From NCBI RefSeq assembly GCF_003334335.1, contig NZ_QOWQ01000144.1: a stretch of 852 bases of DNA, one strand, 5' to 3'. The first letter of the stretch is position 1, and each line of letters starts with the position of its first letter. A model generated the notes under the pieces. That model had not been told where the DNA came from. It saw only the letters and a list, made by a program, of their open reading frames with translations, and searched no databases. Origin of the DNA: Escherichia coli. GTDB lineage: Bacteria > Pseudomonadota > Gammaproteobacteria > Enterobacterales > Enterobacteriaceae. A program made the position numbers and the translations under genes. Positions 1-852 of this stretch are shown one piece after another.

Positions 1-64
1 GCGTCACGAAATGTCACGACATGTCACGGCGTGTCACTACGTGGTCACATTGATGTCACGACGG
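1..64 (+). repeat. Iteron array A: 6 direct copies of core GTCAC(GAC) at 10-11 bp spacing; may continue upstream of the window
   Basis: GTCAC occurs at 3-7, 13-17, 23-27, 33-37, 44-48 and 55-59, with spacings 10, 10, 10, 11, 11. Extended copies are gtcacgaa, gtcacgac, gtcacggc, gtcactac, gtcacatt, gtcacgac, all in the same orientation. Confidence 0.75.
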
Positions 65-852
65 AAGATTTAGCAAGTGCGCTTGATGTGACGGAAGACG
101 TAATTGATTCAATTTTGCATGCAATGCAGGGGCGGGTTCTGGATGGTGACCTTATTTCCGGATGGGAAAAACGTCAGGTGCTGAAAGAGGACAATGGTAA
201 CGTTTCGCAAACGGCAAAATCCCCGGCAGAGCGCAAGAGAGCGCAGCGGGAGCGCGAAAAGCTGCGGAAATATGATGCTGATTGTCACGATGAGTCACGA
301 CGTGTCACGCATCTGTCACGACAAGTCACGACAGATAAAGATACAGATACAGAATTAAACCCCACACATAACGCGCGCATGCGCGAGAGTGCTCCAACCG
401 GTGAGTCGCATGGTGCGCCGTTGCAGACAGCCGAACCTGAATACCTGGACGGCCTGAGCGAACCGATCGGGAAATTTTCGATGACTACTGTCTGGCAGCC
501 GTCGTCGGATTTTCGACAACGGGCAGCAGTGTGGGGTATGGCTCTGCCTGAGCCGGAATTTACACCTGCTGAGCTTGCCGCATTCCGGGATTACTGGATG
601 GCGGAGGGGAAGGTTTTCACACAGGTTCAGTGGGAGCAGAAATTTGCCCGCCACGTGCAGCACGTCAGGACACAGGTAAAACCAGTCAGCAAGGGGGTAA
701 GCCATGCAGCATCAGGTGGCACGGCATCACGGGCAGTTCAGGAAATCCGGGCAGCACGCGAACAGTGGGAACGAGACAACGGATTTATCAGCAACGGAAA
801 TGGCCTGGAAGCTGTGGGAGCTTATGGGGGAGGTGTATTCGAACCGCTGGAC
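1..852 (+). CDS. Replication initiator / replisome-organizer protein with DnaT-like C-terminal domain; internal fragment, 5' and 3' ends both outside the window
   Basis: Frame 1 (codons at 1, 4, 7...) has no stop across all 852 nt, while frames 2 and 3 carry stops in the first 110 nt (e.g. TGA 51-53, TAG 71-73, TGA 84-86, TAA 101-103). Residues encoded by about nt 466-672 (GKFSMTTVWQPSSDFRQRAAVWGMALPEPEFTPAELAAFRDYWMAEGKVFTQVQWEQKFARHVQHVR) share the motif string W-Q-P-x-x-D-F ... A-x-W-G-x-A-L ... E-L-A-x-F-x-x-Y-W-x-A-E-G-K-V-F-x-x-V-Q-W-x-Q-K-x-A-R that I recall from the C-terminal domain of E. coli DnaT. The N-terminal two-thirds does not resemble chromosomal DnaT and contains the iteron arrays, as expected for an initiator whose origin lies inside its own gene. 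Homology is from memory, not a search. Confidence 0.8.
281..333 (+). repeat. Iteron array B: 5 direct copies of core GTCACGAC at 10-11 bp spacing
   Basis: GTCAC occurs at 284-288, 294-298, 304-308, 315-319 and 325-329, with spacings 10, 10, 11, 10. Extended copies are gtcacgat, gtcacgac, gtcacgca, gtcacgac, gtcacgac, in the same orientation as array A. Confidence 0.75.
333..360. other. AT-rich tract with AGATA(C/A) x3 tandem; candidate DNA-unwinding element
   Basis: agataaagatacagatacagaattaaac has 21 of 28 A/T, in a window that is otherwise GC-balanced. AGATA starts at 333, 339 and 345. It lies immediately 3' of iteron array B. Confidence 0.4.
374..385. repeat. Perfect 12-bp palindrome CGCGCATGCGCG
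   Basis: cgcgca|tgcgcg is its own reverse complement. It is an alternating GC-rich run about 14 bp downstream of the AT-rich tract. The function is unknown; it also encodes part of the linker (A-R-M-R-E). Confidence 0.6.

Follow-up and report, generated by a model that had tools for sequence, protein, structure and literature searches.

Iteron origins inside initiator genes and inverted sites derived from iterons are already known from several phages and plasmids. The origin of phage lambda (ori-lambda) lies within the gene of the initiator O and combines four internally palindromic iterons of about 19 bp with an A/T-rich tract and a palindrome. The replisome organizer G38P of Bacillus phage SPP1 binds repeats in its own gene (oriL) and then recruits the helicase loader, and RepA_N origins consist of direct repeats inside the rep gene. 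In the iteron plasmids of pPS10 RepA, F RepE, R6K pi, and P1 RepA, compact two-armed inverted repeats over the rep promoter bind initiator dimers. Here, we analyze an 852-nt stretch of Escherichia coli DNA (the window) that covers the internal part of a phage replication-initiator gene with two arrays of direct GTCAC iterons (Table 1). Our focus is a pair of near-duplicate segments at the downstream edge of iteron array 1, the second of which contains the pentamer GTGAC, the reverse complement of the iteron core, at positions 88-92. Comparison with related genes indicates that this pentamer is under selection at the DNA level that goes beyond what coding demands and is tied to array 1. Whether it serves as an auxiliary candidate contact of the initiator, placed in opposite orientation three helical turns past the last direct iteron, is in our assessment about evenly balanced.

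A tblastn search of phage records and four scans of viral contigs yielded relatives of the gene at 327 loci, among which 250 5' gene parts are distinct; the sources are E. coli, Pseudomonas (D3-like), Aeromonas, Ralstonia, and many metagenomic phages. Conservation was tested on the 138 distinct GTCAC-type genes, with changes counted as Fitch parsimony steps on a neighbor-joining tree made without codons 70 to 74. A preliminary description of the window had proposed to look for conservation of the inverted copy among homologous origins, and it is indeed conserved: GTGAC stands at the position homologous to window position 88 in 124 of the 138 genes, and the homologue of another GTGAC at 146-150 is present in 29. 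The four-fold-degenerate codon of Val72, whose third base is the center of the pentamer, reads GTG in 128 of 129 cases and GTC in none of the 129. This third base has changed once on the tree. Outside the iterons, 17 other four-fold sites show 9 to 21 changes each, four-fold sites inside the iterons show 0 to 5, and the adjacent third bases vary freely (10 steps at D71 and 12 at T73). Among lineages that are more than 20% diverged in DNA, 19 of 20 have GTG at Val72, compared to 10% to 50% GTG in other Val columns, and in the remaining lineage GTGAC is retained with a shift of one base and in other codons, GAC TGT GAC (D-C-D). Of 123 genes that have array 1, 118 contain the pentamer, whereas none of the 8 genes lacking array 1 does. 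It is the center base that is fixed; this base sets the orientation of the site and is always the non-iteron one.

Besides the conserved pentamer, 13 of the 138 relatives have a second GTGAC exactly 10 bp further on, e.g., Aeromonas phage pAEv1818 (L005 1693-1707, GAT GTG ACC GAG CGT GAC), and this doubling forms a two-copy inverted mini-array within the codons of the recognition helix. Few synonymous changes among the same relatives are also seen at 2 codons outside any recognized iteron, D11 (GAC; 2 steps; L001 7905-7907, upstream of the window) and Q101 (3 steps; window 175-177).

An inverted element at the boundary of array 1 is a recurring DNA-level feature of this gene family, as seen in sister lineages. 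At the 3' end of array 1, these carry a 10-bp palindrome that joins their iteron core to its complement and covaries with the iteron type: GCAACGTTGC in 8 of 8 genes, GTGACGTCAC in 8 of 12, GAAACGTTTC in the single gene of its type (1/1), and GTCACGTGAC in 7 of 123, the latter in Pseudomonas phages (L004 1649-1658; L008 about 1663-1672; L102-L107, L113, L114; L110). The palindromes lie a few codons upstream of the position discussed here, and the residues that they encode shift (G-H/D/N-V-T/A/S) while the DNA symmetry is kept. At the homologous place, the E. coli window reads GGTCACATTGAT, which is not a palindrome, and it has the pentamer alone, 33 bp downstream. The flanks of array 2 have no conserved inverted copy among the relatives.

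Within the window itself, the best alignment pairs TTGATGTCACGACGGAAGA with TTGATGTGACGGAAGA at 16 of 16 identical bases with a single 3-nt (CAC) indel. This bears out the near-identity of the two segments that was noticed before, and tgatgtcacgacggaag indeed lies at 51-67; tgatgtgacggaag is likewise present, though at 84-97 instead of 83-96, which moves its GTGAC from 87-91 to 88-92. The alignment score is matched by about 0.1% of 2000 dinucleotide shuffles of the window without its arrays, and by none within the next 100 nt. As also described before, the last direct core (55-59) and the inverted core form a convergent pair, with 33 bp from start to start where about 30 bp had been given, and the peptide DVT(T)ED is repeated in frame 1 as DVTTED (amino acids 60 to 65) and DVTED (71 to 75). 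However, the view that the window has no other inverted copy does not hold, since GTGAC occurs again at 146-150. We rejected the latter as a second inverted site because it is unconserved. These 2 minus-strand matches to GTCAC are about what chance would give (shuffles yield 2.75 for both strands together), and from the window alone, GTGAC at 88-92 is not distinguishable from chance as an inverted iteron; it is the comparative data alone that raise it above that level.

The repeated peptide can be placed in a structural model of the N-terminal domain (N-domain) of the initiator. A single-sequence AlphaFold prediction of amino acids 1 to 160 was poor (predicted local distance difference test, pLDDT, 54) and was replaced by a model from an alignment of 63 sequences (pLDDT 87.6; predicted template modeling score 0.80). 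This model has helices at residues 16-25 and 29-45, a loop at 46-62 that is encoded by array 1, a helix at 63-70, a turn at 71-73, a helix at 74-84, and a beta wing at 85-96, i.e., a helix-turn-helix (HTH) followed by a beta-hairpin wing as in the winged-helix domains of RepA_N initiators and of the N-terminal domain (NTD) of DnaD. DVTTED and DVTED are, according to this model, the segments that precede the 2 helices of a single HTH. The predicted fold is closest to the DnaD NTD and RepA_N, a similarity at the level of the fold only with 8% to 14% identity, and the PHROG family “DnaD-like helicase loader” matches the initiator at E 9e-7. A Foldseek search against the PDB gave no significant match, and a profile search against PDB sequences returned only noise. 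Pfam finds nothing in amino acids 1 to 110, the whole initiator yields only a DnaT domain, and the Pfam family Phage_rep_org_N matches just 1 of 63 family members, and weakly (E 0.016).

Positions 84-97 are therefore foremost coding sequence, specifying the HTH turn L70-D71-V72-T73-E74-D75 of the winged-helix N-domain, and the near-duplicate arises from the occurrence of D-V-T-(T)-E-D ahead of each of the two HTH helices, where the first of these peptides overlaps the last direct iteron. The full 16/16 identity of the two copies is specific to the E. coli haplotype of the window, and other relatives share only the pentamer and common amino acids. The DNA duplicate as a whole is thus a coding coincidence sharpened in one haplotype. 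Gene conversion between the copies, as the matching third bases of T63 and T73 might hint at (ACG/ACG or ACA/ACA), was rejected because this match is limited to 2 E. coli haplotypes and not seen in other lineages.

For the pentamer as such, we favor a function in the assembly of the initiator on array 1. Its distance from the last direct iteron amounts to three helical turns and places both on the same face of the DNA. One more winged-helix domain of the initiator may bind positions 88-92, with its orientation reversed relative to the domains on the direct array. Such an additional contact would be auxiliary or mark the boundary of array 1 and might cap or bend the nucleoprotein complex. Both the binding of the initiator to the pentamer and the effect of that binding are inferred. 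A bolder version of this idea, which we regard as possible but doubtful, is that the reading head of the initiator is coded by DNA that is itself one of its putative binding sites: The need for a GTGAC contact in opposite orientation at the edge of array 1 would dictate the Val-Thr of the HTH turn and lock the protein sequence to the site, the inverted site would cap or bend the complex in an orientation-specific manner and so determine how far, or in what geometry, the initiator oligomerizes on an accessory array, and the same design would recur in the 10-bp core-plus-complement palindromes of sister phages with other specificities.

Several observations weigh against a role of the pentamer as an initiator contact. 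A position weight matrix built from ten iterons scores the 88-92 site at 5.9 bits in inverted and 5.0 bits in direct orientation, a weak match given that nine of the ten source iterons reach 10.1 to 15.5 bits (the GGTCACATT copy has 6.7) and that unrelated background sites score up to 7.3. Only five bases are constrained, and the sixth and seventh iteron positions, the third bases of D71 and T73, are free. Five lineages lack the pentamer through replacement of T73 by A, M, or S, and the tie of GTGAC to array 1 is confounded with phylogeny. The V-T at the turn could also be in part a clade-specific feature of the protein, as Thr is a good helix N-cap. Finally, the reverse complement of a gene's own core stands at the exact HTH-turn position in 55 of 131 GTCACG and 6 of 15 GCAACG genes, but inside the HTH of none of the 35 CGAACG, 14 GTGACG, and 13 GTAACG genes, so that covariation at this exact position is not demonstrated.

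A rival view is that nothing but coding shapes this segment, i.e., that the peptide D-V-T-(T)-E-D simply stands before two HTH helices, that the DNA identity of the copies is a coincidence of codon choice, and that GTG is fixed for an unrelated cause like codon context or translation. We consider this unlikely as an account of the pentamer, even though both copies do lie just ahead of predicted HTH helices, their full identity is limited to one haplotype, the matrix score is at background level, and the pentamer has been lost in five lineages. It leaves unexplained why Val72 shows 1 parsimony step next to free neighbors when other sites show 9 to 21, why GTG persists in 19 of 20 deep lineages, why the base that is fixed yields the complement of the iteron core, why GTGAC reappears displaced in GAC TGT GAC, and why it is restricted to genes with array 1. 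Even if the peptide is taken as given, only 1.4% of synonymous re-codings of LDVTEDV attain the same alignment score. Quite unlikely, too, is that the site represents a seventh direct iteron in degenerate form, with TGTGACG deviating from TGTCACG at the central base, and is bound in the orientation and phase of the array (55 + 33). The sequence GTSAC is palindromic except for its center, so that the inverted core is at the same time a direct core with a C-to-G change in the center of the same five base pairs, and the two readings differ by one base pair. The label “inverted” is in this sense ambiguous. The flanks in the window, TGTGACG, fit the direct consensus better (T at -1 and G at +6), the direct and inverted matrix scores are close, and GTGACG is a bona fide direct iteron of a sister lineage. 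However, GTC would restore the consensus and still encode Val, yet it never occurs at this codon, the flanks that define the orientation are unconstrained, and the other main (sister) haplotype and Pseudomonas read CGTGACA, a perfect inverted 7-mer.

We regard it as highly improbable that the site is an operator or serves autoregulation in the manner of plasmid RepA/RepE/pi, with initiator dimers on an inverted repeat repressing the initiator gene. Inverted half-iterons serve as operators in the paradigm of iteron plasmids, and an initiator bound inside its own open reading frame (ORF) could in principle block elongation. But the site lies 214 nt downstream of the start codon and inside the ORF, without a sigma-70-like promoter near it (L001 8088), with matches in 2 kb limited to L001 7022-7090 and to the minus strand of array 2. 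It is also a single pentamer whose partner is the direct core 33 bp off, not a compact inverted repeat of two half-sites, and the homologous place in the window has none of the compact 10-bp palindromes seen in sister lineages. Of the functions suggested in the preliminary description, an operator is hence unsupported, whereas an array boundary or distinct site is plausible because the pentamer is conserved together with array 1. Least probable of all is a hairpin at the level of single strands, in mRNA or unwound origin DNA, with GTCAC(AT) at 44-50 or 55-59 pairing with (AT)GTGAC at 86-92. GTCACAT (44-50) and ATGTGAC (86-92) do form a perfect 7-nt inverted repeat, and the minimum-energy RNA fold pairs 44-53 with 83-92, but the folding energy is no better than that of shuffles (z = -0.33 for RNA and -0.17 for DNA), and complementarity past five bases is not kept in relatives. 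Two further candidates were rejected on inspection only. An internal GTG start at Val72 would cut the HTH, and neither the window nor a Pseudomonas relative has a purine-rich Shine-Dalgarno sequence ahead of it; a CRP half-site TGTGA at 87-91 has no TCACA partner six bases away.

Table 1. Coordinates of features in the 852-nt window (position 1 is its first base).
Feature	Position	Strand	Comment
Internal part (codons 43-326) of 345-aa phage replication-initiator gene, frame 1	1..852	+	Whole window open in frame 1
Iteron array 1, six GTCAC cores at 3, 13, 23, 33, 44, 55, spacing 10-11 bp	1..62	+	Codes for loop between helix 29-45 and HTH of N-domain
First copy of near-duplicate, TTGATGTCACGACGGAAGA	50..68	+	Holds last direct iteron (core 55-59); codes for I59-D-V-T-T-E-D65 and leads into HTH helix 2
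Second copy of near-duplicate, TTGATGTGACGGAAGA	83..98	+	Codes for L70-D-V-T-E-D75, i.e., HTH turn (D71-V72-T73) and first residues of recognition helix
GTGAC, reverse complement of invariant iteron pentamer	88..92	-	The sole part of the second copy held at DNA level
Second GTGAC, in codons GAT GGT GAC	146..150	-	Chance occurrence; in 29/138 relatives, all of the window's own lineage; absent from L002, L004, L005
Iteron array 2, GTCAC cores at 284, 294, 304, 315, 325	274..333	+	Inter-domain linker; covaries with array 1
A/T-rich tract of ACAGAT/GATAMA hexamer repeats (period 6, 3.8 copies, 331-353)	331..360	.	Codes for DKDTDTE; directly after array 2
GC-rich perfect 12-bp palindrome, CGCGCATGCGCG	374..385	.	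Just past A/T-rich tract

The wider layout of the locus is that of an iteron origin. GTCAC occurs 11 times on the plus strand and 2 times on the minus strand, and these 13 matches (vs. 2.75 expected) are not reached in any of 200 shuffles. Across the family (at loci including L004, L005, L008, L098-L114, and L157-L163), the iteron core follows the pattern G-N-N-A-C-G in units of 10 to 11 bp and in two arrays. The cores of array 1 and array 2 covary among the 250 distinct genes, with GTCACG/GTCACG in 128, GTGACG/GTGACG in 12, GCAACG/GCAACG in 8, GGAACG in 4, GTAACG in 3, and few off-diagonal cases, and the arrays are therefore specificity-matched sites. CGAACG is a further core type of the family. 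Array 1 looks like an accessory addition because many distant family members have array 2 only. Its copy number also differs between close relatives, with 6 cores in the window and 4 in phage vB_EcoM-606R7 and in Pseudomonas and Aeromonas phages. This difference is an in-frame 21-bp (7-amino-acid) indel (window 21-41 vs. L002 4002-4022), as expected from slippage in a repeat that codes for a tolerant loop.

Downstream of array 2, the GC content falls to 0.325 at 321-360 and rises to 0.65 to 0.70 just beyond, and the A/T-rich hexamer tract is likely the unwinding region of this origin. Hexamers of the GATA type follow array 2 in 166 of 246 relatives, very distant ones included, and L007 has GAGACA/GATACA about 6 times. 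The GC-rich palindrome next to this tract resembles the one to the right of the A/T-rich region of the lambda origin. Relatives have variant GC palindromes like ACGCGCGCGT and CGCGCACGTGCGCG after array 2, and a perfect palindrome of at least 10 bp is found there in 36 of 131 GTCACG-type genes.

The initiator gene sits at the position of lambda O in a lambdoid prophage that is integrated beside yccA in E. coli, with the gene order cro-like, cII/YdaT-like, initiator, and “replication protein P” (a P-like helicase loader). PHROG “replication initiation protein” families match the initiator with E values of 1e-118 to 1e-91, and its DnaT domain (PF17948) covers amino acids 201 to 266 in the C-terminal half. 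E. coli chromosomes contain the window sequence with 100% identity, and 867 of 5426 complete E. coli genomes have relatives of it.

The same N-domain and iteron module is joined to unrelated C-terminal domains in different phages (L002 3864-4934, L004 1501-2400, and L005 1429-2346 vs. L001 7875-8912). The C-terminal domain is DnaT-like in the gene of the window and in an Aeromonas phage and of other kinds in phage 606R7 and in D3-like phages of Pseudomonas. C-terminal domains are thus exchanged as modules at the linker that holds array 2. The gene after the initiator varies as well and can encode a P-like loader, a DnaB-type helicase, or something else. In the locus of the window, the downstream “replication protein P” (L001 8905-9366, past the right end of the window) has just 153 amino acids, overlaps the initiator gene by 8 nt, and matches positions 74-236 of the 236 in the P-like loader profile, i.e., the C-terminal two-thirds. 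PHROG profile 15931 (482 positions) extends over both the initiator and the P fragment, as though some phages had the two as a single fused protein. In Escherichia phage 204576 (L003 1801-1998), the homologous gene is frameshifted past the N-domain so that the ORF ends at 165 amino acids, with array 2 and the GATA tract intact in the DNA but in another frame. Possible reasons are an error in sequencing, decay of the gene, or retention of a cis-acting origin without a full initiator.

The literature that we searched for the G-N-N-A-C-G iteron motif or this type of origin contained no published description of the two-array origin or its inverted element, and a paper on the replication of non-lambdoid Stx phages makes no mention of DnaT, repeats, or primosomal proteins. 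The origin class nevertheless is widespread, with representatives in prophages and phages of E. coli, Pseudomonas, Aeromonas, and Ralstonia and in many metagenomic phages, and it is apparently undescribed. Should the initiator indeed contact the pentamer, this would offer a simple experimental handle on the assembly of this class of origins, since a single synonymous change (G90A or G90C) would alter the site and leave the protein untouched. The pentamer would then also exemplify clearly how the codons of a protein domain can be constrained by a cis-acting site that this domain itself reads. Prophages could further be typed for replication and incompatibility specificity by the iteron code G-N-N-A-C-G.

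Among known systems, the layout is most readily compared with lambda O and ori-lambda. Both origins lie within the initiator gene at the same genome position, after cro and cII-like genes and before a P-like loader; in both, repeated initiator sites (putative ones in the window) are followed by an A/T-rich tract and then a palindrome; and in both, the linker that separates the N-terminal DNA-binding domain from the C-terminal domain is encoded by the repeats. Conversely, the initiator of the window has no sequence relation to the N-domain of lambda O, and its C-terminal domain is DnaT-like. Its repeat units are direct repeats of 10 to 11 bp, one of the two arrays falls within a loop of the DNA-binding domain, and the codons of the HTH turn contain an isolated inverted pentamer. 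The locus shares with the iteron plasmids of pPS10 RepA, F RepE, R6K pi, and P1 RepA the combination of direct iterons with a separate site that has an inverted core, but in the window this site consists of a single pentamer far inside the ORF, with the nearest direct copy 33 bp away and no promoter near. RepA_N initiators (the pSK41 / MDR initiator, PDB 4pta) and the DnaD NTD are similar in the match to the DnaD-like PHROG family and, for RepA_N, in having repeats in the rep gene. They differ in that this similarity is limited to the fold, that the family of the window belongs to phages with proteobacterial hosts, and that it has a second array within the DNA-binding domain in addition to the inverted pentamer. 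Like SPP1 G38P, the protein is a phage initiator with repeats in its own gene, to which it is predicted to bind, and some relatives are annotated as “N-terminal phage replisome organiser”; on the other hand, the Pfam family Phage_rep_org_N matches a single family member weakly, and repeats and host range differ from those of SPP1. The window hence shows the clustered repeats, the coevolution of array cores, and the adjacent A/T-rich region of an iteron-type phage origin without homology to lambda O, and it is best described as a lambda-ori-like layout made of unrelated parts.

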